IMG/VR virus record: IMGVR_UViG_3300031864_000001
Location: 1-59,892 of that record
Length of the DNA: 59,892 nucleotides
Source of the DNA: a virus
Taxonomy: Duplodnaviria > Caudoviricetes
Direction: 5' to 3' (one strand)
How positions within the stretch are numbered: the first letter of the stretch is position 1; each line of letters starts with the position of its first letter. The notes under the pieces are model-generated. The model saw nothing but the letters and a program-made list of their open reading frames with translations, did no database searches and was not told the DNA's origin. A program made the position numbers and the translations under genes. Of this stretch, positions 5,301 to 45,811 are shown piece by piece.

Positions 5301-5543
5301 TTAACTTTTTTTACTTTTTTCAAATCTTAGTTTAAATGAGAGCAGAAGGTGTTTATAGGTATAATATCTGTCTACTTTTTCACCACCTTTAGGCACCTTA
5401 CGTCTATTCACATACTTTCTTTCAAATAGAATTGGGTCAAGGTATGGTCTCACGTTTCGATAAAAACAATCCTTTGTCATATGTGGATCCCAAAACGCCA
5501 TTATCTCTGGAATTCCGTTTAATATTTCTAAATCCTGGTTCAT
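5301..5543 (-). CDS. Small putative winged-helix/Xis-like DNA-binding protein
   Basis: LNGIPEIMAF...CFYR pattern resembles excisionase/MerR-like HTH; basic C-terminus. Confidence 0.45.
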   Translation of the reverse strand: MNQDLEILNGIPEIMAFWDPHMTKDCFYRNVRPYLDPILFERKYVNRRKVPKGGEKVDRYYTYKHLLLSFKLRFEKSKKS

Positions 5544-5578
5544 ACATTGCTCTCTATATAATAATATATATAATACTA

Positions 5579-5980
5579 CTACTCAGTAGATACTATGTTA
5601 GTATGTGAGAGAAAATCCTCCGGTTTATATTCTTTTATCCGTGGGCTCCACCTCATAGCTTTACCGCCTCTTTTCAATTTTACTTTACGCCAGCCGATCA
5701 GTAACAGCCGGCCGCCGTTTTGAATCCATTGCAGGGCTTTGGGCGCCACCTCGGGATCCTCGGTTATTTTTTTATTGTGCTCACTGAAGGCCTGGCCGCA
5801 GGATTGTATGGCGATAATTGAGTTTTCACCCATGGCCACGATGTCACCGAAACCGAACATGTCTTTTCGTTTTCCGAATTTCCCCGCGTATGGATTGAAC
5901 TGTTCGACCTTGTCGGCTACCCAGCCTTGAGACCTGATATATTCAAAAGTCCGTGATGTATTGCTTATGCCTTTAGCCAT
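5579..5980 (-). CDS. PD-(D/E)XK nuclease, Holliday junction resolvase-like
   Basis: GWVADKVE...DMFGFGDIVAM...AIQ pattern; located after the replication genes. Confidence 0.7.
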   Translation of the reverse strand: MAKGISNTSRTFEYIRSQGWVADKVEQFNPYAGKFGKRKDMFGFGDIVAMGENSIIAIQSCGQAFSEHNKKITEDPEVAPKALQWIQNGGRLLLIGWRKVKLKRGGKAMRWSPRIKEYKPEDFLSHTNIVSTE

Positions 5981-6672
5981 TTATATTTCCCCCCTAGAAT
6001 TGCTAAAAACTTACTCTCAGTTATTAAAAAATCAAAATCAGCCTGCCAGTTGCGATCATTCTCGCCCATCAAAAAAGGCCGTTCTTTTATTATTTCAAAA
6101 TAATCCCTCCACCATTCAAGGGACTGTGTCTTTTCCGATTCAAGCCATCGAGCCTTTAAATGCTTTTTTCGGGTTTCTGATATTTTAACTACCCTCGGTA
6201 GTTCGGGTAGGATCTCATGGTATAAATCTACAATCTCCTGATAGGGAACTTTCACTATATTCTTTCTTTCTTTTGTAATACTTTCTTTTGTGGGTGACTG
6301 TTTAGATGACACCTCTATCGTCTGTTTAGATGACACTTTTGGGCTTGTCGTCTGTTTAGATGACACCCTCCATTGCTCATAATTCTTATTAAATCCATAT
6401 CTTATCCGACCTCTGTCATCTGTTTGGATGACTGTCATCTGTTTAGATGACAGTTTCTTTAATGTTCTATGTACAGCCCGACGATCCATTCCTGTCATTT
6501 TTGCGAACTGAGAAAGGGCTATCCAATCCGTTTTTTTCTGGAATCCGTATGTTTTTCTGAATATCGCCCATATTACCTGTATCTCTGCCCCTGATAGGTT
6601 CACCCTCATAAGTGCGTCAACAATTTCATTCGCAATCGGCGTGTATCCATCTTCAACCTGGGGGTTTGCCAT
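5965..6672 (-). CDS. Phage replication initiator (lambda O-like N-terminus)
   Basis: GYTPIANEIVDAL...IFRKTYGFQKKTDWIALSQF; internal iterons; C-terminal WQADFDFL...GKY. Confidence 0.88.
   Translation of the reverse strand: MANPQVEDGYTPIANEIVDALMRVNLSGAEIQVIWAIFRKTYGFQKKTDWIALSQFAKMTGMDRRAVHRTLKKLSSKQMTVIQTDDRGRIRYGFNKNYEQWRVSSKQTTSPKVSSKQTIEVSSKQSPTKESITKERKNIVKVPYQEIVDLYHEILPELPRVVKISETRKKHLKARWLESEKTQSLEWWRDYFEIIKERPFLMGENDRNWQADFDFLITESKFLAILGGKYKWLKA
6298..6453. repeat. Replication origin iterons (CTGTTTAGATGACA x5)
   Basis: Copies at 6298, 6322, 6352, 6420 (variant), 6439; 6432-6453 is a palindrome with 9-bp arms; AT-rich tract at 6250-6290. Confidence 0.85.
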
Positions 6673-35579: not shown

Positions 35580-38500
35580 TTATTGATTTACAGTCATAAA
35601 CAGTTTATTAATCCGCATCATTTCATTGTTTATTTTTTGTTGTTCATCTCGTATCTTATTATTTTTTAACCGAATAGGCAACTTGGAACCTTTTATTTGA
35701 TCGATTTTTTCATCAAACCGCTTGATTTTCCTCTTAGCAATATCAACCTTGGTGTCCAGATTTAGTAAATACTTCTTTTTCTGTTCCACCTCTTTGGCTT
35801 CTTCGTCCTTGCCCTGATCTCTTAGGTTTTTGATATCCCGTTCGGCGTATCTGATCTTGGCTAGGTTATTATAATAAGTCATCTCATCGTAATATTCGCT
35901 TGTTTCCCCGTAAACACGCCTGACAATAGGTATTTCGCTTGGTTTTATGTCCTCACCCACGATCAATTTCCACGGATCGGCAACAGTCTGGCTTATTGTG
36001 CGGCCAAGACTGCCTGTAAAAGTGTCCCATACTAAGTCAAGGGCTTCTGGTGATACATTAATGCCCCCGGGTTCTTCACCTGGCTCATTGAAAACATCAT
36101 ATAGCTTCTTGGATATCCACTTTGAAGGCTCCCGGCAACTGCTCCAATATAGCTGATATTCAGGTTTCGGGACATCAAAAGGCTGTTGCTCAGGTTTCAA
36201 CGGTTGGCCTGCAAAGTTCTCGTTGGTCTTCCATTGGATATAAGGATCTATTACCGTGGGAGATATTATTTGAGCTATCGATCCTTCACCACCAAGCGGG
36301 TTAAAGGCTGATATTGCGGCACTTACCATCCTCATTATATATTTTGTTGGTTCATAAGGTTTATCTATTATACCTATGCGATAAGAAAGCGATTCCCCGG
36401 CTATCTGGCCTGCCACATGGAATACGTTGTACCCCCAAGGCATGGGTATTTTGAAATAATCCCCTTCGTTTAACAGGTTAGGAATAATAATATTCCTCTC
36501 CTTAACCCATTCGGGGATTTTGTCATATTTCCATTCATCATCGTCGTCCTGCCCCATCATTAGCCTGCAAGCGATATCCCATAATCCTGCAAATGCCATT
36601 GTTCCTAAAGCCAGCCTTCTGACACTCGGACTTCGATAAAGCGCTGTTATCATCCTGGCCGATCCCTGGATCCCTGCATTATAGAATAGATATAGAGCAT
36701 TAATTGTGGGTCCGGCCATACCTTTCCGATTAAAATTCACCGTGATATTCTTGGCAACACTCATGGCGTTTTGTTCCGTTACACCAATATCTTCTATGAG
36801 ATGCCTGAAGAGAGATAGCCTGACAGCGTTTTCAACCGCTGTATTTTCTTTTGATATTAAATCAAGAATATAGCGCATCCCCCTCATGCTTCTATGGAAC
36901 GGATCACCACCCCGAGCTCTCAGTTCCCTTTCCAGTCTTCGGCGTCTGGTCTCTATATCCTTATAATGGCTTGTCCAACCGGTTTGAGCCCCTGATTTCC
37001 GGTATCTTTCATACCATTGCACCCATTCATTGCCTTCGTCTTTGCCCGCGATGCCTTTACGAATTCCCTGCAAAGCCTTGAATATATCTTTATACATGGC
37101 TTTTCTCAGGTTCTTGCCAACAGTATCGGATATATTATATCCGGCTGTCTGAACGTCTCGTATAAAGTTCGAGAGTATAAATTCTGGACTTCCGCTTGTA
37201 TTGACAAAAGCCAAGAAACGGTTAAAGGTTGCGGCCATTCTTATTAATGCCATAGAATTTGGAGCACCTAAGTTTCTCATGGCCTTCACTGTTCTCATTG
37301 CATGGACATTTTCGGGATTAAACCAGATAGTATGTTCTTCAGCGTTTTCATCCTTTACAAGAAGCACATTATCGGCAAACCTGAACATCGGATCACGGCC
37401 AAACGTGACTTCGTTTAATATTACCGATTGCCCGGTAAGGGGGTCTATCTCTTTCCTTTTTTTCAGATACGCCTTGTGTTCCTCTCTATCCACCTCCCAA
37501 ACGGCTTTATTCGGGTTTTCAGTAGCCAGTTTTAAAAGGGCCCGGCCAACCTTCACCTTTTCTGTTCTGATCAGCGTCGCTTCATGCTGTGCAACAATAT
37601 TTGTCAAGACATTAACAGCCGGCGCATGACTGCCAGAAAGACGCGGGTGGACCTCTTTTCCTCTTATATCTAAACCCCTCCCGCGTTTCGGGGTCCCGGC
37701 CTTTCTTTTTAGAGGAATATAGTATTTATAAGCCTTTTCCCAATTAGCAATCTCTTCCGCTGATACCAAGCCAGACTTTTTTAACGTATTTCTGGTAGCC
37801 TTAGTTATAGTATCGACCATTTCGGCAATCTCTTTTATGTCTGAATTGCCTTTATATTTTTGCAGGATCTTGAGGGCATCTTCATTTTTCATGCCAGATA
37901 GCCACTCATTCTCTTCCCTATCAGGATTCAATCTCTGAAAGCGGGTGTTGGCTTCTGGTGCATGCCGGGCATATAAATATTCTTCAACTTCTTCCAGGGA
38001 TAAACCTGATTCGTGTATTTGATCAAGAAGGGGTTCAACCATGTCCCGATTAAAGTCTTGAATATTGGCCCAAGCCGCCCCGTGCATGGCTTCCTCTACC
38101 TGATATGCGTTGGCCTCGTCTTCTGTTTCCTCACCCCGGGTCATTTCAATAGCTTTTTGGATCCTTGACAAGGAATTCAATCTATCCTGAACCTGCCATT
38201 GGACATAATCAAAGGCCTGGCGTAACGTACTATCATCGCCTATGGTAAATCCATCTGAAAACATGGGTGTTTCGCCGGTCTGTTTATGTGTGGCCATATT
38301 TTTTACGACTTGATCCCGGATGTCTTTATTGGCTCTTGATTTATCCAGAATATCCGCTATCCAGCCCTCCGCCCATTCCTTTGACTTTTCTTTAGGAGCT
38401 GCTCGCTTTTTGCCAAGGGTGATCTCAATGGCTCCGGTTTCACTTTTTAATCTGGTTTTTACATCATTCCAGATATATTTGATAAGATTCCGGATTTTCT

Positions 38501-41500
38501 CCCATACCTCGGAAAAGGAACTTTTCATCTGTCTTGCAAAATCGGAGTATTTTTGATGGCCTTGGTTATAATAATGTGTGCCGACTGTAATGAGATCGTC
38601 ATAAAAAGGAGACTCACTTTTGACTTTTGCCCAGGAGATTGAGCCGCGCTCGTCTTTGAGGCGGGAGGTTACGCGGGATTTGGCTTGGTCTAATAATTCC
38701 TTGTAATCAGGTTGAGCAAGGGCGTATTTGGCTCCAAATCTTACGATTACTTCTTTGTTGGGAATCCCTTGGGTGGCATAGGGAGTTACCATCATTCGGG
38801 CTTGTTCATCAAATTCGGCCCTTGTGGCTACATCCCGAGCCTCAATTTCGCCCGCAAGGTGGAGGTATTGCTTAAATGCCTTATCGGGCAACACCCCCAT
38901 ATCACACCTTCGTAAAGCATCTCTTGTTTGACTATTATTAATATCAAACCCCCGTTGCTTTAAATCATCCATTGCCTGATAAAATTCTTTGTGCATGGGG
39001 CTATTGTTTCTTGTTTCTAAATCTTTATGTGTCATTTTAGATGCTACATATCGTGCCTGTTCATCTTGGAATTCTTTAGAATTTCTTATTTTTTCTGCCT
39101 GCTCAAACCTTATTGACGCTGATACAAAATGTTGCTGTAATATTTCCTTCTCACTTTTGGGTGATCCCCCCCTTGCAAATCCCTCTATTCCCTGAATACT
39201 ATGCTGAATTTCATGGATAAGGTGTTCTTTGGCTTCTTTTATATTTTTACCTCTAATATCTATCTGTGGCTCAAGGTCAAATAATCCTGGCGTAAAAGAC
39301 CCTCCGGGATTTTGCATATTTTTATCAATCATTATATTGATGAGGGTATTTTTAAGCTCAGGGTATGCTTTAAATAGTTCTTTATGTTCAAATATTTCAC
39401 TAAGCGTTGTGTGTCTTTCACCAATGCCCAATGAATCAACCTTTATATTCTTAATTTTTGCTTTTGAATCATCTATCTCATATCGCCATTTATCATCGGG
39501 ACCCAAAAACCAACCCGTGTCCCTACGGATCTCTCCAGCAGATTTACCCCTTTGATTCATTTGTGAGGCAATATCAAGGGCTGTAAGGTCTGCTGTGCGT
39601 GATTCGGGGCCAGCATAGGCGTGTTTTACCAGCCCTTTTGCTCCCCTCGCCCCTCTCTCCCAAACCTCTCCTGTCCTGACCTTCTCAAAGCTCGTCTGCC
39701 AGTTCGGGAAGAAGTTATTTAGTATCTTGTTAAAAAACCTCTTTATTTTCTGAAAGATGGTGTTTTTCTCCTGCTCCGCCTTCCATTTACCATAGGCATC
39801 GGCGGCATTTTCTTCCTTCCCGTGTTTCTTTAAAACACTGGCTCGCTCTTTATTGTTAAGAACCAGGTCCATTGCCGCGTGAAAGGCTTCATGGTCTGTC
39901 TTTTCCTGACCGGCATATTTTGACAGCCACATAAGGCCGTCGGTTCCCACCTGCTTCCATGCCGCTACCGCCACCTCTCCCCTTTTAGCCTTGCGTCCAT
40001 ACCCTATCCTTATCTGCTCAGGATCAGGCCGTATCACGCCCGTATTAGCCATTACGACTATCTGTGACCGGTTGGGCAGGGTAAGATTAAAGATGTCCCC
40101 AGCTTGCTTTATTTTGGCCGTAGGGAAGGCATTTTGAATGATGTCAGGGGTTATCGGTGCTGGCTTAAAGGCTCCCTTACTAAGAGCAAATTCGGGAAAC
40201 AAATTTCCAAGCCTGCCCTCACCAGCAGTTATGATATTCCTGAGAATAGTATTGCTGTTTGCTCCATTTCTTATAAAATGCTCTAAGGTCTTCATTGCTC
40301 TATCAAATAAAGCAGGGGATTCCGAAAAACTTTTCCTAAGTAACGGGGGGGCAAAATGAATTATAGCATCTTTGTATTGTTTTGATGTGCCTATCCATCC
40401 CCTGATAAAATCATCGTAATCCCCCCTTGCCCCTGATTTTTCAAGTTCCTCGGCGTGTGAACTAACATCAATATTGCCGGTACCCAAAACCATTTCGGCT
40501 GTTTTGGGATTATACATGAAACGCTGATTACGAATATTATGAATATCGTAGGGTTGGTTTTTGATAAGCTGAACTTGTCCTGTTATTTTAACAGGTTTAA
40601 TCTCTTTAATTTCAGCAAGGCCATATTTAACCTCTTCTGTGGCTTTCTTGATCTCTATCCCCTTAGCCTCAACCTTTCCCTTGGCTTCCTCGGGGGTCTT
40701 GGTAGGGGCTTGCCCCCCACTCTCCGGGGGGCGGGATGGTTTAGGGAGTTCAAATGTCGATTTTATTTGAGATGGTTCAAAAACAATATATGAATCACCC
40801 CCCAATTCAACAGTGTTGTGATATACTATACCATCATAACCTTTTTCTCTCATTTTGCCCACAATCCATTGATCTAATTCATTGCCCAATTCATGGATTT
40901 TTTCTGAATGATATTTCACCTTTTTTTTATATGCAGTTTCTCCTATTTTATCTCTCAGGCGATCCCACCTTAATTGATTTCCTTCACCCGGTAATCTTAA
41001 GGCTATAGAATTCGTAAAATCTTTTACATCTTTGAAATATTGTGAATATCTTTTATTCCATTCGGATGCTTTTAATATTCTTTTCTTGATCAATTTCTCT
41101 GGTAATGTAGTGAAATCCCATGATCCTAAATCATTGAGTCTTAATGGTTTTTTTAAATTTATATATGCAGATTTTATCTGGACATTTTTTGTAATACTAG
41201 GTAATTGATTTTGTAAGTCATTAATTCTACTTCGCGCACTTTTAATAGTGCCAAAATGTATTCCTATGCCCCTTATATCATTTATGCTAGGTGCTTTTGA
41301 TTCAAAATCACTAAATTCTCTAAAAGTTCCATGATAAACTTTATCCCGTACAACACTTTTCTTAAAAGGATTCCCACCCTCGGGCTTCGGGGTTTCTGCG
41401 GTGGGTATTTTGGCCTTACCCCGTTCTTTTTCCACGGGTTCTACTTTAGCAGATTCAGCTTCCTCTTTCAACTCAGGATATTCGGCTAGCACTTCTTCGG

Positions 41501-44500
41501 GAACGGGTTTGCCTTCGGAGAGGGCTTGTTGGATGAGTGCTTTATGGTTTTTAGCAGAATCAGAAGGAAATCTTTCAATGCCTTTTGCAAAATATTCGGC
41601 TTTTGTCATTTCCCATGGTTCCTTGGCCTTCGCCTTTTCCTCGGGGGTCTTGGGTGCCTTTACTAAAAAACTTTTTTCTATATCTGAATATAGGTTTTTC
41701 GCTTTCTGAAAATCCCCCTTCATTAAACTAAGTATGGCATCCTTCGCCCTTTTTTGATTATCTGTGTTGGTAGGCTGTGATTCATATTGAGATATAAGTC
41801 GAAACAACTTTTCAGGCTCGTATTTTCTAGCAGCTTCCAAGCTATCATCTGGATGATTTATTCCTTCCATATCATCCATGTTTTTCAAAACACGATTTAT
41901 TTTCTCGCTTATATATCCTGGATCTGGATGCTCTTTTTGGATTTCCCTTAAAACATCACCAGCAGATTCTAATATATACCGTGGTGAATTAGCCTTATCC
42001 CAATCTTCATGCACCGTTTTTTCGGGATAGGTTTCTTGGTATGTCCTCGGCTCTAATTTAGTATTAGTTTTCCAAGGTTCTTCCTCAACCTCCCCTAATA
42101 TCTTCTTTTTCTCAAACTCTTCCGGCTTTTCCTCAGCAATTTCCTTTGTCTGATCCCCTTCTTTCAGCCAGGTCTTAAATTCATCCATGGTCATGGCCTG
42201 AATGGAGCCCAGACCTTTCCAGCCACGTTCATAATTGGCCAAATACCCTACCCGAGCCTGTTTCTCCGTGGGAAATCCAAGCATCACTTTATGCTCATCA
42301 AAGTCTCCAGTAGCCGGATCTATCTGATTTATTACGTACACGTTCTCACTTTCCATGTCTGGACCGACAAATACATCAACCTGGTCCCCATCTTTGTCCT
42401 CTGTTCTCCTGATATAGCCATAGTGATGTTTTAAGACACTCTCCCATCTCTTCCTTTTTCTTGAGATTCCGGTTCGAGTAGATCCCTTGGGGTTCTCTAT
42501 GGAAATATCAAGTCCTTGAACATTGATATGGGCCTTTTTGTAGTTTCCGGCTTCAATCTGGGCCTCGGTAGGTTCTGTTTCGGCTTCCCCAGCTATTGCT
42601 TCATCAAGGGCAGTTTCTTCTTCTAGTCTTTGCCCGGGCCTACCGGGTTCTCCGGGTTTTTGCTGTTGTGGATACGCGCCGCCTTTCGCTGGGCGTTGTC
42701 GTATAATCTGTCCCTCGTAGCCTTCGACATATTGTCCCTCGGGTGCTTGTCCTCCCAATTCCCCTTCTTTTCCTCGAAGAATTTGTCTCTCATGCGTTCG
42801 TATGCTCTCGGCATCGGTTATATCCTCCCATCCTTCTTCTAATAATGTTTCATTATTGACCAATAGATTGAGTTGCTCGGTTTCCTGGGGGCTCAACCCC
42901 TTTAAATCAACCGCTTCTCCTAACAGGATCTTGCCTGCCAAGTCTTTTAGTTTCTCGTTTTTTAATGCTTGGGTAGTAAAGTCTTTTTGTTTCTGCCTTT
43001 CCTCTACTCTTTCACCCACTTCCGCGATTCCACTAGGAGCAGTTTCTTTTTCAGATATTTCAGCAGTAAGTTCTTTTAATTGCTTTTTCTCTTTCTCTGT
43101 TAAGCCCTTGGTGCTAATCTTCTGACCCATCAGCTTTTTGGCCGCTAAGTCAGACACTCGGTCAGTCGCCTCTACTGCCAACCCTTCTTCCCTTAATCCT
43201 TTGCCTTCCCCCCTGATTAGATTATCCAAGGCCCGTTTCGCTTTTGCGCGGGCCGTCATTATCGGCCTAGATACCGGTTCCCCTAAGTCTATAGGTTCCG
43301 TGGTAGCCTTTACCTCGGCCAAGAGCTTATCGATTTCTTTTATTAAGGGATGGCCTGCAGGAGCGTTACTTTTTAAATCCTCTAAATCTGTGATGGATAA
43401 TTGCCCATTATTGTAAGCGTAAAGGACTTGGGCCGTGGCTTCTTTCTGCTGTTTCTTTTCTTCTTCAAGGAGATCTGTTTCTTCCTGGAGTCCTTGTTTG
43501 GGACGACGGATATTGGCACCACCACTTAAACCAAGCGTAAATAGAGTTAATACAGTAGTCGGGCCAAGAACCTGAAAAGCCTCTTTAATTGGACTAGCTT
43601 CAGGCCGAATCCCTGACACCTTTTCCGTAATGGCTTGCCCAAATTGCTGACCGAATTCCGTTGCGTTTTCCACGACCCATGTTTTAAAGAAGTCTTTTAC
43701 TAACTGCCATAAGCCTCTTCTTGCAGCGGCGACTTCATCAAGTCCCATTAATTTGCCTAAATATTTAGTGCCAAAATATTCCCCGACAGCTTCAATAATG
43801 CCATCAAAAAGAGGACCAAATGTTGCATTTCGTAGTTTTTCTGCTTCTTCCCCTTTTCCCTCTAATTCTAATTGTTCCGCTCTTTGAGCGGCCATATCAA
43901 CCGCCTCTTGCGCTTGAGAACCACCATACATCGCGGCTATCGCTCCACTCACCGCCTTATTCACTTGGCTCGCTGTCTTTTTAGCCTGTGATAAAAGTTT
44001 TGTGGCTTCTGCTGTTTTCCCAGCAGCCTGAGCAGCCTTGGCAGCCTTTACCGTTTTATTTACACCACCAAGCAGTTGAAAACCTTTAGTAAATGCTATT
44101 TGAGGTACAATAGAAGGACCTGTCATTTTTAAGCCTTCATAAATTGCCCATTCAGGTGTCCAGGCTTTAAGCTCTGGCTCTGGTCCATACATTTTTTCGC
44201 CGATTTGCTCAGCTTTCTCTTTTACGGCTTTTCCTGTGGCTGCTAATACTTTCCCTGCAATTTGCTGTGGATAATGCACGGCCTTCTGTAAAGGGTAGAA
44301 GATATCAGCCATTTCTTCTTTTTCGGCTTTCTTAACAGGCTTAGCGGCGGTTTCACCTACATATTGAGCCATACCACCTAACATAGACGGGAATTCCTTT
44401 GTGACTCCTTCCGCTAAACCACGCAAGCCATATTTGACCAGGTTAGCGGATTCCTTTTTCTCTTCAGTCTCTATATCTTCCCATTCATCCTCTTCTTGTC

Positions 44501-44618
44501 CAATCGAAGATAATGTCAGTCCCGCCGTATTCAGACCATATTGGCCTGCCTGATATCCCTGGCTACTAGGAATATCTTCCCAATCACTATCGTTATATGT
44601 GTAAGCATTTAAAGGCAT
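35580..44618 (-). CDS. Giant polyvalent protein (InPase, ART-like, zincin, LPD23, LPD38-like domains)
   Basis: InPase-like GNYKK...HYGYI...DGD.VDVF...FDEHK (~42170-42590); ART-like VYHGT...GYDG...FEPSQIKS (~40760-41345); HEAFH; LPD23-like TGWF...WRYEIDDS; HEIQH...GEIEAR; LPD38-like C-terminus. Confidence 0.88.
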   Translation of the reverse strand: MPLNAYTYNDSDWEDIPSSQGYQAGQYGLNTAGLTLSSIGQEEDEWEDIETEEKKESANLVKYGLRGLAEGVTKEFPSMLGGMAQYVGETAAKPVKKAEKEEMADIFYPLQKAVHYPQQIAGKVLAATGKAVKEKAEQIGEKMYGPEPELKAWTPEWAIYEGLKMTGPSIVPQIAFTKGFQLLGGVNKTVKAAKAAQAAGKTAEATKLLSQAKKTASQVNKAVSGAIAAMYGGSQAQEAVDMAAQRAEQLELEGKGEEAEKLRNATFGPLFDGIIEAVGEYFGTKYLGKLMGLDEVAAARRGLWQLVKDFFKTWVVENATEFGQQFGQAITEKVSGIRPEASPIKEAFQVLGPTTVLTLFTLGLSGGANIRRPKQGLQEETDLLEEEKKQQKEATAQVLYAYNNGQLSITDLEDLKSNAPAGHPLIKEIDKLLAEVKATTEPIDLGEPVSRPIMTARAKAKRALDNLIRGEGKGLREEGLAVEATDRVSDLAAKKLMGQKISTKGLTEKEKKQLKELTAEISEKETAPSGIAEVGERVEERQKQKDFTTQALKNEKLKDLAGKILLGEAVDLKGLSPQETEQLNLLVNNETLLEEGWEDITDAESIRTHERQILRGKEGELGGQAPEGQYVEGYEGQIIRQRPAKGGAYPQQQKPGEPGRPGQRLEEETALDEAIAGEAETEPTEAQIEAGNYKKAHINVQGLDISIENPKGSTRTGISRKRKRWESVLKHHYGYIRRTEDKDGDQVDVFVGPDMESENVYVINQIDPATGDFDEHKVMLGFPTEKQARVGYLANYERGWKGLGSIQAMTMDEFKTWLKEGDQTKEIAEEKPEEFEKKKILGEVEEEPWKTNTKLEPRTYQETYPEKTVHEDWDKANSPRYILESAGDVLREIQKEHPDPGYISEKINRVLKNMDDMEGINHPDDSLEAARKYEPEKLFRLISQYESQPTNTDNQKRAKDAILSLMKGDFQKAKNLYSDIEKSFLVKAPKTPEEKAKAKEPWEMTKAEYFAKGIERFPSDSAKNHKALIQQALSEGKPVPEEVLAEYPELKEEAESAKVEPVEKERGKAKIPTAETPKPEGGNPFKKSVVRDKVYHGTFREFSDFESKAPSINDIRGIGIHFGTIKSARSRINDLQNQLPSITKNVQIKSAYINLKKPLRLNDLGSWDFTTLPEKLIKKRILKASEWNKRYSQYFKDVKDFTNSIALRLPGEGNQLRWDRLRDKIGETAYKKKVKYHSEKIHELGNELDQWIVGKMREKGYDGIVYHNTVELGGDSYIVFEPSQIKSTFELPKPSRPPESGGQAPTKTPEEAKGKVEAKGIEIKKATEEVKYGLAEIKEIKPVKITGQVQLIKNQPYDIHNIRNQRFMYNPKTAEMVLGTGNIDVSSHAEELEKSGARGDYDDFIRGWIGTSKQYKDAIIHFAPPLLRKSFSESPALFDRAMKTLEHFIRNGANSNTILRNIITAGEGRLGNLFPEFALSKGAFKPAPITPDIIQNAFPTAKIKQAGDIFNLTLPNRSQIVVMANTGVIRPDPEQIRIGYGRKAKRGEVAVAAWKQVGTDGLMWLSKYAGQEKTDHEAFHAAMDLVLNNKERASVLKKHGKEENAADAYGKWKAEQEKNTIFQKIKRFFNKILNNFFPNWQTSFEKVRTGEVWERGARGAKGLVKHAYAGPESRTADLTALDIASQMNQRGKSAGEIRRDTGWFLGPDDKWRYEIDDSKAKIKNIKVDSLGIGERHTTLSEIFEHKELFKAYPELKNTLINIMIDKNMQNPGGSFTPGLFDLEPQIDIRGKNIKEAKEHLIHEIQHSIQGIEGFARGGSPKSEKEILQQHFVSASIRFEQAEKIRNSKEFQDEQARYVASKMTHKDLETRNNSPMHKEFYQAMDDLKQRGFDINNSQTRDALRRCDMGVLPDKAFKQYLHLAGEIEARDVATRAEFDEQARMMVTPYATQGIPNKEVIVRFGAKYALAQPDYKELLDQAKSRVTSRLKDERGSISWAKVKSESPFYDDLITVGTHYYNQGHQKYSDFARQMKSSFSEVWEKIRNLIKYIWNDVKTRLKSETGAIEITLGKKRAAPKEKSKEWAEGWIADILDKSRANKDIRDQVVKNMATHKQTGETPMFSDGFTIGDDSTLRQAFDYVQWQVQDRLNSLSRIQKAIEMTRGEETEDEANAYQVEEAMHGAAWANIQDFNRDMVEPLLDQIHESGLSLEEVEEYLYARHAPEANTRFQRLNPDREENEWLSGMKNEDALKILQKYKGNSDIKEIAEMVDTITKATRNTLKKSGLVSAEEIANWEKAYKYYIPLKRKAGTPKRGRGLDIRGKEVHPRLSGSHAPAVNVLTNIVAQHEATLIRTEKVKVGRALLKLATENPNKAVWEVDREEHKAYLKKRKEIDPLTGQSVILNEVTFGRDPMFRFADNVLLVKDENAEEHTIWFNPENVHAMRTVKAMRNLGAPNSMALIRMAATFNRFLAFVNTSGSPEFILSNFIRDVQTAGYNISDTVGKNLRKAMYKDIFKALQGIRKGIAGKDEGNEWVQWYERYRKSGAQTGWTSHYKDIETRRRRLERELRARGGDPFHRSMRGMRYILDLISKENTAVENAVRLSLFRHLIEDIGVTEQNAMSVAKNITVNFNRKGMAGPTINALYLFYNAGIQGSARMITALYRSPSVRRLALGTMAFAGLWDIACRLMMGQDDDDEWKYDKIPEWVKERNIIIPNLLNEGDYFKIPMPWGYNVFHVAGQIAGESLSYRIGIIDKPYEPTKYIMRMVSAAISAFNPLGGEGSIAQIISPTVIDPYIQWKTNENFAGQPLKPEQQPFDVPKPEYQLYWSSCREPSKWISKKLYDVFNEPGEEPGGINVSPEALDLVWDTFTGSLGRTISQTVADPWKLIVGEDIKPSEIPIVRRVYGETSEYYDEMTYYNNLAKIRYAERDIKNLRDQGKDEEAKEVEQKKKYLLNLDTKVDIAKRKIKRFDEKIDQIKGSKLPIRLKNNKIRDEQQKINNEMMRINKLFMTVNQ
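42623..42814 (-). CDS. Overprinted small basic protein inside the giant gene (+1 frame)
   Basis: GGGAGG SD 9 nt before ATG; MPRAYERMRDKF...AQRKAARIHNSKNP. Confidence 0.6.
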   Translation of the reverse strand: MPRAYERMRDKFFEEKKGNWEDKHPRDNMSKATRDRLYDNAQRKAARIHNSKNPENPVGPGKD

Positions 44619-45811
44619 TATTCCTCTTTTAACCCTTTTGTAACAAGCACCCATTGGCCTGTCTGTTCATCTTTTCTATACTCAATAACCTGGCCATTCT
44701 GAATAGCTTTCCTTCGTAACTCTCCGGTTTTAGCATCTTTATACTCGACGTAATTTTTATTGGGTATATTACCAATAGTTCCTTTAGGACTTTCCTGCCT
44801 GTTAATAGATTGTCGGACATGCTGTCGTTTTATGTTACCCTGGTGGTCATATTCGATTATGGTGCCGTCGCTATATATCTCCCGGATATCCCCGGTCTTT
44901 TTATTGCGTTGGGTCTTTATGACTGTTTTTTGTGGTCCTGTCTGTCGAGCCACTTCGCCTCCTTGTGGTGCAGGAATTCCTTTTTCAGGTAATCCAAAAC
45001 CCCCAGGGGCCGCCTGATCACCGGAAACAAGGTTGATATAGTTCCTTATATATTCCTCTTTAGCTATATATTCAGGCATATCAGGATCATCACTTATAAC
45101 CCCGTTTTTAATGTCGGCGCTGTATTGCTTGGTTGCATCTTCCCTGATACCGCTCATTTCTTTCGTTGTGAGGCGTTCTTCCTGCTGTCTTAAAATAGTC
45201 TCGGCAGGCAATAGTAATTTTTCAATCGCATCCTGCGCGGATTCAAAAGTCTCTGATTGATTTTCCCCAAAATTGACGATTATTTTACCTTCCGGAGTCC
45301 TCTCAATCTCTTGAATACTCACGCCTGCGGTTCCGTATCTATCAAAATACTGCTTTACGGATTCAGTATCGCCCAAGTAAAATCCCCTCATGGCATCATT
45401 TAAGGCATCCTTACGTGTTGCCACGCTCTGGGTAGCAGCTAAACCTGTTGCTTTCTCAGCCCGTTCCTCGGCTAATCCAATTCTTGTATCATACCCTTCC
45501 ATACGTTGCTGGTAGGTATCTTCTTCTATTCCCTTAGTTTGAGCCCTTGTAAGGTCACGATTAACGGCATTGGTCAGGACTGCTTCCCTTAAATCTTGTT
45601 CTTGCTTCTGGATATCCAATTCCGCCGCCTTTCGATTAAGGGCTTCCTCAACAGCCTTTGCCCTGATATCTTCGGCACTCTGATAATTACCAAGTTTAGT
45701 TGATCCGCCTATTGGTCTACGATTTCTTAAAGATTCAAGTTGCTCGAATCGCGCTTCTTTTTGTCTGAGTCCTAGACCATATCCAGACGCATAATCACTT
45801 CCCATAGACAT
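44618..45811 (-). CDS. Internal virion/ejection protein candidate
   Basis: Helical, Gln/Ala-rich; precedes the giant gene. Confidence 0.6.
   Translation of the reverse strand: MSMGSDYASGYGLGLRQKEARFEQLESLRNRRPIGGSTKLGNYQSAEDIRAKAVEEALNRKAAELDIQKQEQDLREAVLTNAVNRDLTRAQTKGIEEDTYQQRMEGYDTRIGLAEERAEKATGLAATQSVATRKDALNDAMRGFYLGDTESVKQYFDRYGTAGVSIQEIERTPEGKIIVNFGENQSETFESAQDAIEKLLLPAETILRQQEERLTTKEMSGIREDATKQYSADIKNGVISDDPDMPEYIAKEEYIRNYINLVSGDQAAPGGFGLPEKGIPAPQGGEVARQTGPQKTVIKTQRNKKTGDIREIYSDGTIIEYDHQGNIKRQHVRQSINRQESPKGTIGNIPNKNYVEYKDAKTGELRRKAIQNGQVIEYRKDEQTGQWVLVTKGLKEE

Follow-up and report, generated by a model that had tools for sequence, protein, structure and literature searches.

The window, by which we mean the whole 59.9-kb stretch of viral DNA analyzed here, carries on its minus strand a giant gene whose neighbors encode internal-virion and tail-fibre-like proteins (Table 1). 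Pfam matches above the cut-offs placed four domains along its product: InPase at residues 697-831, ART-PolyVal at 1105-1300, LPD23 at 1679-1734, and LPD38 at 2709-2911. With several unrelated effector and LPD domains and a virion-gene neighborhood, the giant is a phage-type polyvalent protein. The initial annotation had described the main frame just before InPase as a low-complexity linker. Consistent with that description, AlphaFold2 modeling of residues 560-835, with an alignment three rows deep over the linker, gave pLDDT values of 31-48 at residues 607-694, all below 50, and of 83-97 on both sides. The middle of this spacer (42624-42815, about giant residues 614-677) is the alternative reading of a small gene. 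Distant relatives of the giant at 32 loci (L001-L032) matched its InPase part alone, and none of them contained a member of the small gene's family.

Table 1. Coordinates of the giant gene, its spacer, and the candidate nested gene within the window
Feature	Position	Strand	Details
Giant polyvalent-protein gene	35580..44654	-	3024 aa; among internal-virion and tail genes
Giant spacer, residues 607-694	42573..42836	-	G/E/P/Q/A/R-rich; predicted disordered
Shine-Dalgarno-like GGGAGG	42824..42829	-	9 nt before the ATG, within the giant coding sequence
TAA in the small-gene frame	42818..42820	-	One codon ahead of the ATG; stop-free stretch from 42817
Candidate nested small gene (ORF63)	42623..42814	-	63 codons plus TAG; +1 frame of the giant gene; ATG 42814-42812, TAG 42625-42623 (ORF translation)
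InPase domain of the giant	42162..42566	-	Local profile search; start 39 nt past the small-gene stop

The small open reading frame, ORF63, begins 1840 nt into the giant ORF and is therefore in its +1 frame. Both elements that had been proposed for this site, a 63-aa ORF in the +1 frame and a GGGAGG Shine-Dalgarno (SD) sequence ahead of it, are present. A TAA closes the small frame upstream, so that its product is not an N-terminal extension. AlphaFold2 predicted this product to be a basic two-helix protein (pLDDT 90.4) with helices at residues 3-23 and 31-52. A profile search of the window for the family described below found the nested ORF alone, the next best segment having E = 1. Other frames are open at the locus too, the +2 frame of the same strand running open for 49 codons and the antisense strand carrying a 70-aa ORF. 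The stretch was contained in 19 DNA sequencing runs of salt-marsh metagenomes, with no RNA run among them. A single natural variant was found within the ORF, G>C at 42632 (contigs of four runs, at low depth), which as read from the sequence is silent in ORF63 and replaces Gln with Glu in the giant.

We dropped ORF length as evidence of coding because shuffled sequences matched 63 codons in 47-56% of trials. Specifically, a +1 ATG-initiated ORF of at least 63 codons arose in 56% of 2000 codon permutations of the giant and in 47% of 2000 synonymous shuffles. Elsewhere in the +1 frame of the giant, another 63 codons run without a stop. An ORF this long being expected (P 0.47-0.56), and other frames being open at the same place, ORF63 could be read as a chance opening in a purine-rich, stop-poor linker, devoid of coding meaning. 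However, it is homology rather than length that sets the small ORF beyond chance. The initial annotation had likened ORF63 to small stand-alone phage proteins; a homolog search found one called 63-aa protein with 74% identity over 62 residues, and of the 84 distinct members of the family, 42 stand alone as genes. The window ORF matched the profile of this family at 80.7 bits (E = 1.1e-23). Furthermore, substitutions between the window and the stand-alone relative L033 were wobble-biased, numbering 16, 13, and 33 by codon position. Homology, the substitution pattern, and the neutral simulation presented below refute the chance reading, to which we assign next to no probability.

The family, defined here by the motif MPxxYExMRDKF...KAARIxNS, consists of small two-helix basic proteins. 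Its profile matched 518 clusters of called proteins (24-144 aa), all named 'hypothetical', and a HMMER search of 1.84 billion representatives returned seven proteins at E ≤ 1e-3. Seven positions (M1, P2, Y5, E6, R9, A45, and A46) did not vary across the 34 members aligned, among them nested ones. Sharing these residues and having a significant profile score, the window ORF can be assigned to the family by its sequence. The family occurs in no cultured phage among 50,697 deposited phage records, where tblastn gave chance matches alone with ORF63 (E about 9) and none with the short form. Searches of Pfam and PHROGs with ORF63 gave no match, and a sequence profile search of the PDB gave 0 matches. 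Foldseek of the small protein against the PDB had 0 matches at E ≤ 0.001 among the 15 listed, and an ESM Atlas search gave no usable match.

A weak local likeness was seen to the uncharacterised Pfam family DUF7218 (PF23855), involving 9 of the 34 members at E ≤ 0.01, with a best member E of 1.5e-4. This likeness spans most of the short-form members, at profile positions of about 9-46 of 47. The four listed member matches scored 13.9-17 bits against a Pfam cut-off of 27, and ORF63 had no match to DUF7218 at E ≤ 1. We rejected membership in DUF7218 given that the listed scores fall below the 27-bit gathering cut-off. No mention of DUF7218 was found in the literature.

Of the 84 distinct proteins obtained in a census of 109 loci, 32 were classed as nested (at least 100 open codons upstream and at least 60 downstream), 42 as stand-alone, 4 as short-covered, and 6 as unclear. 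Stops were looked for in relatives, and all 32 distinct nested members (44-82 aa) were open and intact. Their host open frames extend to more than 2900 codons. The giant lies at offset +2 from the small ORF in all 32, meaning that the small frame is always +1 to the giant, and at same-strand offset +1 no open frame of at least 150 codons covered a family ORF. The host giants are polyvalent proteins with differing domain sets, those outside the window carrying LPD38, ddrB-ParB, RadC, ART-PolyVal, or a methyltransferase with an SNF2 helicase. Among the stand-alone members, 35 have an upstream neighbor ORF, which overlaps the start by 7-55 nt in about 10 cases and is separate in the others. The nearest relative of ORF63 outside the window lineage (L033/L039) is a stand-alone gene.

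Sequence features of initiation accompany the internal start across the nested members. Since the loci are not phylogenetically independent, two of these statistics overstate significance: a strong SD pentamer was found in 30 of 32 nested members versus 88 of 1533 same-frame ATGs (5.7%) in the same giants, and at 30 of 32 loci the region from -30 to +30 folded more weakly than the giant background (mean z +1.20). Purine-rich composition could be a partial cause of the weak folding. The start codon was ATG in 25 nested members, GTG in 5, and ATT in 1, with the remaining member having an ATG a codon upstream; thus a start-capable codon occupies position 1 in 31 of 32. When an SD-like element precedes a shift site, as in prfB and dnaX, it is known to promote frameshifting. 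The SD-like element, together with the constant +1 relation between the frames, would therefore also suit a programmed +1 frameshift, by which the truncated N-terminal module of the giant is fused to the small domain and no free small protein is made. However, the small frame is closed by a stop at a median of 6.5 codons before M1 in nested members, and at one codon in the window. Moreover, the near-universal start-capable first position and a conservation that starts exactly at M1-P2, as it does in the 42 stand-alone genes, speak against a shift. We consider programmed frameshifting very unlikely.

To gauge selection, we ran a neutral simulation on six nested-nested pairs in which a mutation was discarded only when it interrupted the giant frame with a stop. 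An intact ORF survived in 2-6% of runs, and the observed small-frame identity was reached in 0 of 1000 runs for each of the six pairs. In the same simulation, giant-frame identity was that of the null (P 0.26-0.67). Of 78 nested pairs, 76 had a higher identity in the small frame than in the giant frame. A frame-specific comparison of the window with stand-alone L033 likewise placed the constraint on the small frame, where pN was 0.20 and pS 0.80, as opposed to 0.35 and 0.25 in the giant frame. The simulations thus show that the small protein is under more purifying selection than the host frame would account for, and that the giant frame over the small gene drifts as an unconstrained disordered spacer. 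The near-identical L076 and L077 have zero nucleotide differences inside the ORF and are therefore uninformative on recent selection.

These results also bear on whether the ORF might be a decaying relic, that is, a gene recently swallowed by fusion that is untranslated and remains intact for lack of time. That the small frame of the window is poorly adapted in its codon use (0.547) would be compatible with decay. However, nested members have diverged to about 31-47% identity and are nonetheless intact with all invariant residues, an outcome at odds with the low rate of survival in the neutral simulation, where the observed identity was never reached. In addition, the nested ORF is the sole family copy in the window. 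A relic is in our judgment even less probable than a frameshift.

We therefore favor, with a probability of roughly 0.8, the reading that the small gene nested in the giant is functional, lies in the +1 frame, and is independently started. The protein-coding overlap postulated by the initial annotation is upheld by homology and by purifying selection in the nested state. Its statement that the small gene is still expressed is strengthened by that selection, the SD, the start codon, the open start region, and the sole-copy status, from which translation itself can be inferred. Most likely, ribosomes would start independently at the small gene's own SD and ATG within a long late mRNA. To ribosomes translating the giant, these 190 nt would be a disordered G/E/P/Q-rich spacer leading from the N-terminal module to InPase, while the small product would be a 63-residue basic helical hairpin. 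Selection targets the small protein's sequence, with the giant requiring only that the stretch be free of stops. Nesting recurs in many uncultivated phages, and the small gene also occurs in overlapped and in separate form.

How the nested arrangement arose is a separate matter. The initial annotation had supposed that the giant expanded by read-through of a gene already in place. Conversely, the small gene may have been born de novo by overprinting in a polyvalent linker and have later escaped to a stand-alone state, a rival that concerns its origin and not its reality. The window's own long-form clade comprises 13 nested versus 3 stand-alone members, and stand-alone L078 and L044 are placed inside nested groups, with L044 differing from nested L084 mainly by a giant-frame stop. 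Long-term stand-alone members have up to eight giant-frame stops, so that engulfment would need several silent changes first. All of this would agree with overprinting first, but the tree is built on 51 columns and supported branches force 5 of its 14 state changes. Codon usage was equivocal as a test of the older frame: codon adaptation in the window favors the giant frame (0.743 vs 0.547), whereas the pooled values lean slightly toward the small frame, which scores higher at 20 of 32 loci (p 0.048).

In overprinting, an ordered small frame set against a disordered large frame is the usual mark of an older small frame. This is the predicted situation here, where the small protein is modeled as confidently folded and the giant frame as disordered, which favors growth of the giant by reading through an existing gene. 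The weak likeness to DUF7218, a cellular family, would imply an origin outside the giants, although it concerns 9 of 34 members, all below threshold. A widespread, conserved nested gene in a neutral host frame points to engulfment by gene fusion but does not prove it. We regard overprinting first as possible but rather unlikely.

The initial annotation had also suggested that the small gene encodes a regulator or antidote of the effector, and this found no backing because no giant domain co-occurs with it consistently. InPase was present at 9 of the 32 nested loci and at none of the 42 stand-alone ones, and the nested-locus flanks other than InPase were unrelated, with 41 singletons. A role as antitoxin or immunity protein for an effector domain is likewise unsupported, as co-occurrence with one domain fails. 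InPase can lie directly on either side of the small gene, differing by phage. The neighbors of stand-alone members shared no common family, the largest count being 2 of 35. It is doubtful that the small gene is functionally tied to the giant, given that 42 of 74 classified members stand alone with heterogeneous neighbors and that no adjacent domain is consistent.

We nonetheless offer the guess, which will probably prove wrong but has a real chance, that the small protein cooperates with the giant once this is packaged and injected, for example as a co-packaged or assembly helper. Nesting would then ensure co-expression and co-inheritance. An extended version appears unlikely: the small protein would be a dedicated partner of the giant injected cargo (for instance a chaperone, an adaptor for packaging, or a basic protein injected along with it) whose gene is kept in the linkers of unrelated polyvalent genes, and the conserved island would also serve as a homology patch for domain shuffling. 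Were this extended version true, it would amount to an Rz/Rz1-like gene-within-gene system for virion effectors and to a physical driver of polyvalent-protein modularity. Whatever its role, this uncharacterised small protein seems to be kept at some cost by many uncultivated phages, and its being the sole copy here makes it directly testable. Gene callers disallow full nesting on the same strand, rendering the family invisible in such places, where 32 of the 74 members that could be classified are found.

The host gene resembles the polyvalent proteins of phages and conjugative elements described by Iyer et al. 2017 (PMC5512222), being a typical phage-type example with InPase, ART-PolyVal, LPD23, and LPD38. 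The main text of that article contains none of the terms 'overlapping', 'overprint', or 'frameshift' and does not describe a linker-nested gene. We found no published description of this nested gene in the literature, supplements being outside the search.

As in Rz/Rz1, a small gene lies wholly within a larger one, in the +1 frame and with its own start. The two-component spanin genes of lambda and its relatives occur in embedded, overlapped, and separated architectures (PMC6139136), so that one gene pair is embedded, overlapped, or separate depending on the phage; here 32 members are nested and about 10 of 35 overlapped. Unlike Rz/Rz1, the ORF63 family is without cysteine, lipobox, or hydrophobic segment. 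We accordingly rejected a spanin o-subunit (Rz1-like), for which a signal peptide with a lipobox cysteine was sought and neither Cys nor a hydrophobic stretch was found. The host also differs, being a giant polyvalent cargo gene rather than a lysis gene, with a disordered spacer as the overlapped part.

Classical overprinting is represented by phiX174 B in A and E in D. Those genes share with the present case a single stretch of DNA read in two frames, with one product ordered and conserved and the other biased and disordered. In classical cases, however, the nested gene is young and taxonomically restricted, whereas here it is widespread and conserved (518 clusters). Half of the sampled family members stand alone and the host frame is neutral filler, again unlike the classical arrangement. 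The overprinted genes of small viruses and phages have been reviewed (PMC8227390). Against that background, the locus offers a clean natural case in which the conserved gene is the nested one and the host frame is the filler. As such, it bears on the birth of overlapping genes, whether by fusion and engulfment or de novo, and on the growth and shuffling of giant phage effectors.

The initial annotation had placed a 63-aa ORF with a GGGAGG motif in the +1 frame of the giant gene, just before the InPase domain, and its coordinates, frame and domain position were all accurate. The start of this small ORF (ORF63) lies 1840 nt past that of the 9075-nt ORF 35580..44654, and hence in the giant's +1 frame, and it covers giant residues ~614-677. 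The giant ORF product is a phage-type polyvalent protein of 3024 aa. Neighboring genes encode internal-virion-protein and tail-fibre-like products, and the genome, a virus record, is podovirus-like and encodes a terminase as well as a portal or adaptor. Searching all six frames of the window with the family profile returned the nested ORF as the sole family copy (E = 1.1e-23, the next-best segment having E = 1).

Small ORF, its start signals and the Pfam domains of the surrounding giant in the window
Feature	Position	Strand	Basis or remark
Small ORF, 63 codons	ATG 42814-42812, TAG 42625-42623	-	ORF calling
GGGAGG (Shine-Dalgarno-like)	42829-42824	-	9 nt before small-ORF ATG
TAA in small ORF's own frame	one codon upstream of ATG	-	read from sequence
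InPase domain	giant residues 697-831		Pfam
ART-PolyVal domain	giant residues 1105-1300		Pfam
LPD23 domain	giant residues 1679-1734		Pfam
LPD38 domain	giant residues 2709-2911		Pfam

ORF length was rejected as proof of coding because shuffled sequences matched it: a +1 ATG-ORF of at least 63 codons was present in 56% of 2000 codon permutations of the giant and in 47% of its synonymous shuffles (n = 2000). Synonymous shuffling left the precise 63 codons of the small ORF free of +1-frame stops in 5.7% of cases. A second stop-free run of 63 codons is present in the same +1 frame of the giant. Further open frames at the site are a same-strand +2 frame of 49 codons and antisense ORFs of 70 aa (42630-42842, +) and 107 aa (42802-43125, +). 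The evidence that counts for the small ORF is homology between sequences, not length.

Homologs of the small ORF were indeed present. Among 5.8 billion proteins, a word-indexed search found one 63-aa homolog with 74% identity, and HMMER, run against all 1.84 billion representatives, gave seven matches at E ≤ 1e-3, six of which are small proteins (46-69 aa) with the same motifs. The weakest match, the 186-aa protein P0009, has three repeats containing MPQNTYRRYARKREHFF and is probably a chance or repeat-driven hit rather than a family member. A profile built from 34 members recovered 518 clusters of 24-144 aa, all hypothetical or unnamed. Only four longer family proteins (145-230 aa) were found, and the motif there still starts with Met-Pro. 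In the family alignment, residues M1, P2, Y5, E6, R9, A45 and A46 are invariant and D10, F12, A41, K44, I48 and N50 nearly so. Family members come in a long form of ~63 aa, which includes the one in the window, and in short forms of ~45-50 aa. AlphaFold2 with the family alignment confidently modeled the small protein (pLDDT 90.4) as a hairpin of two helices, residues 3-23 and 31-52, with a basic tail after them. Pfam yielded only sub-threshold DUF7218 matches in 9 of 34 members (13.9-17 bits for the four matches listed, against a cut-off of 27), PHROGs essentially no match to the family, the PDB no family match by sequence or, among the matches listed, by fold at E ≤ 0.001, and deposited phage genomes no family member. 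Judged by its sequence, the small ORF is a member of an undescribed protein family.

We compared loci from viral contigs (37) and metagenome contigs (80); after removing 9 viral loci whose small proteins were identical, and adding the window, the final set comprised 109 loci representing 84 distinct small proteins. Thirty-two of these are nested in a same-strand open frame extending at least 100 codons upstream and at least 60 downstream, 42 are stand-alone without a covering open frame of nested-class size, four are covered by shorter frames (cut by contig ends in three of the four), and six are unclear because a contig end is too close to assign a class. The likeness to small stand-alone phage proteins noted initially was borne out in half of the distinct members (42/84). 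Among these is the homolog in the L033/L039 phage, whose portal and other genes are 45-60% identical at the protein level to those of the window. There, ORFs of 142 aa and 181 aa flank the homolog, which is an ordinary gene, and similarity to the window spans exactly the small-ORF ATG to stop.

Open frames of at least 800 codons, some longer than 2900, surround 28 of the 32 nested members. In 32/32 nested cases the giant's frame is offset by +2 relative to the small ORF, which puts the small ORF in the giant's +1 frame, and no open frame of at least 150 codons covers the small ORF at offset +1 in the family loci scanned. Antisense "shadow" frames of 150-444 codons, similar to those in the window, were found in 17 loci; they look compositional and are ordinary. 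For the 35 stand-alone members with an upstream neighbor ORF, this neighbor reaches 7-55 nt into the small ORF in ~10 and abuts it within 0-5 nt in ~10 more. Taken with the nested loci, this varied spacing means that embedded, overlapped and separate architectures all exist. Two loci, L044 and L084 (6001-6189 in each), encode nearly identical small proteins; in L044 a single stop, 44 nt after the small-ORF start, shuts the giant frame, whereas in L084 this frame is open over 624 upstream and 1996 downstream codons, which looks like a recent split, fusion or sequencing error. A three-frame overlap occurs in L067/L147 (5444-8516) and L060 (5489-6389), where an upstream ORF at offset +1 enters the small ORF and the open stretch of a downstream ORF at offset +2 already begins ahead of it. 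A frameshift within the overlap that broke up a giant could account for this.

The proposed frame-specific comparison of substitutions, made between the window and stand-alone L033, gave low pN relative to pS in the small frame (0.20 versus 0.80; 16/13/33 differences by codon position) and the reverse in the giant frame (0.35 versus 0.25; three stops in L033). Between the window and nested L041, amino acid identity was 69% in the small frame versus 46% in the giant frame, and the small frame was the more identical in 76 of 78 nested pairs. We simulated six nested-nested pairs to their observed nucleotide divergence, rejecting only giant-frame stop mutations. The simulated small ORF was intact in only 2-6% of runs, observed small-frame identity was reached in 0/1000 runs per pair, and giant-frame identity equaled the null expectation (P = 0.26-0.67). 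This outcome implies that giant residues drift freely in the overlap and that the small protein is conserved. The main frame is a low-complexity linker here, as originally described: G, E, P, Q, A and R make up 72% of the giant's reading of the overlap, which was modeled at pLDDT 31-48 versus 83-97 in the flanks, with a thin alignment over the linker. The giants of 13 loci have a semi-conserved spacer peptide, A-x-x-[IL]-R-x-D-E-G-Q-[IV], in the overlap (window 42780-42813 and equivalents) because the small protein's N-terminus is conserved.

A strong SD pentamer accompanies 30 of 32 nested members and 32 of 42 stand-alone members, against a background of 88/1533 same-frame ATGs in the same giants. 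Nested start codons are ATG (25), GTG (5) and ATT (1), with an ATG one codon upstream in the remaining case (n = 32). Folding of the RNA from -30 to +30 around the start is weaker than the background of the giant in 30/32 loci (mean z = +1.20), although, with related loci and a purine-rich region, the nominal p-value exaggerates this effect. Independent internal initiation on the giant's late mRNA is the most likely source of the small protein, predicted to be a small basic helical hairpin, and ribosomes translating the giant would read the same DNA as a flexible spacer. A minor alternative is a programmed +1 frameshift that would join the small domain to the N-terminal module; against it, the small frame has a stop upstream of the start (a median of 6.5 codons before it in nested members), the first codon is start-capable, and conservation begins exactly at Met-Pro. 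Two nested or covered loci, L126 and L153, have A-rich leaders without any SD. The start regions of L126 and L133 are 33-34% G+C, and L133 keeps its SD despite being AT-rich. A-rich leaders without an SD occur in hosts not using SD, and the SD-less leaders here raise the possibility that the family spans hosts with different initiation signals.

How nesting arose is less straightforward. The initial annotation had the giant expanding by readthrough of a gene already present, which fits the folded small protein, the disordered host frame and a slight advantage of the small frame in pooled codon adaptation (0.687 in the small frame versus 0.635 in the giant; small frame higher in 20/32 loci, p = 0.048). 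Three observations run contrary to it: codon adaptation in the window is 0.743 for the giant frame versus 0.547 for the small frame, the window's clade is 13/16 nested with stand-alone members inside it, and as many as 8 stops interrupt the giant's frame in long-standing stand-alone members. A tree from 51 columns, leaving out 10 unclassified rows, needs 14 state changes, at least five of them forced by supported branches. Transitions between nested and stand-alone states were clearly repeated and may have run in either direction.

The host giants are polyvalent proteins with differing domain sets, such as LPD38 in L065, ddrB-ParB, RadC and ART-PolyVal in L075, and a methyltransferase and SNF2 helicase in L051. 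At E < 1e-6, the 250-aa flanks of the nested site fell into a single InPase cluster with 9 members, plus six pairs and 41 singletons, making the small gene a conserved island in otherwise unrelated surroundings. The idea that the small protein is an antidote of the effector found no consistent co-occurrence behind it, with InPase in 9/32 nested loci and the other flanks unrelated. Our best guess, with about one chance in three, is a partner or co-packaged protein of the giant, since the genes that host it encode virion cargo. It is at least as likely that its role does not depend on the giant, given that 42/74 classified members are stand-alone with heterogeneous neighbors.

InPase lies 14-254 nt from the small ORF in eight of the nine nested loci that bear it, downstream in the window (small gene and InPase together spanning 42162-42814), L080 and L086, and upstream in L045 (the pair spanning 5538-6195), L046, L068, L085 and L092. 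This swapped order, together with an N-terminal module (window giant residues ~73-400) common to the window and L045/L046, suggests local module shuffling around the small-gene island. Near-identical metagenome relatives L076 and L077 align to the window with 96-99.7% identity to either side of 43484-44572, a ~1.1-kb part of the giant's N-terminal region without a blastn match in either, so that a block inside the giant gene has been replaced. In L138 (975-1439), an InPase-like stretch downstream of the nested small ORF has 2 stop codons, possibly marking a decaying giant or a poor contig. The window segment 42975-43300 (giant residues ~450-560), which lies before the nested gene, contains two similar motifs, KGLTEKEKKQLKEL and KGLSPQETEQLNLL, within a helical region; these may be an internal repeat.

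Comparative sequence evidence confirmed that the small ORF is a genuine nested gene; it belongs to an undescribed family and recurs in polyvalent genes. The terms "overlapping", "overprint" and "frameshift" are absent from the main text of the polyvalent-protein paper (PMC5512222), and we found no account of such a nested gene in the literature searched. In architecture the family matches the Rz/Rz1 spanin genes, whose embedded form is also in the +1 frame. An account of these genes includes embedded, overlapped or separated architectures (PMC6139136), the same range as in the small-ORF family. However, the small protein has neither Cys nor a hydrophobic segment and is not a spanin. In contrast to classical overprinting, the nested gene here is the widespread, conserved partner.
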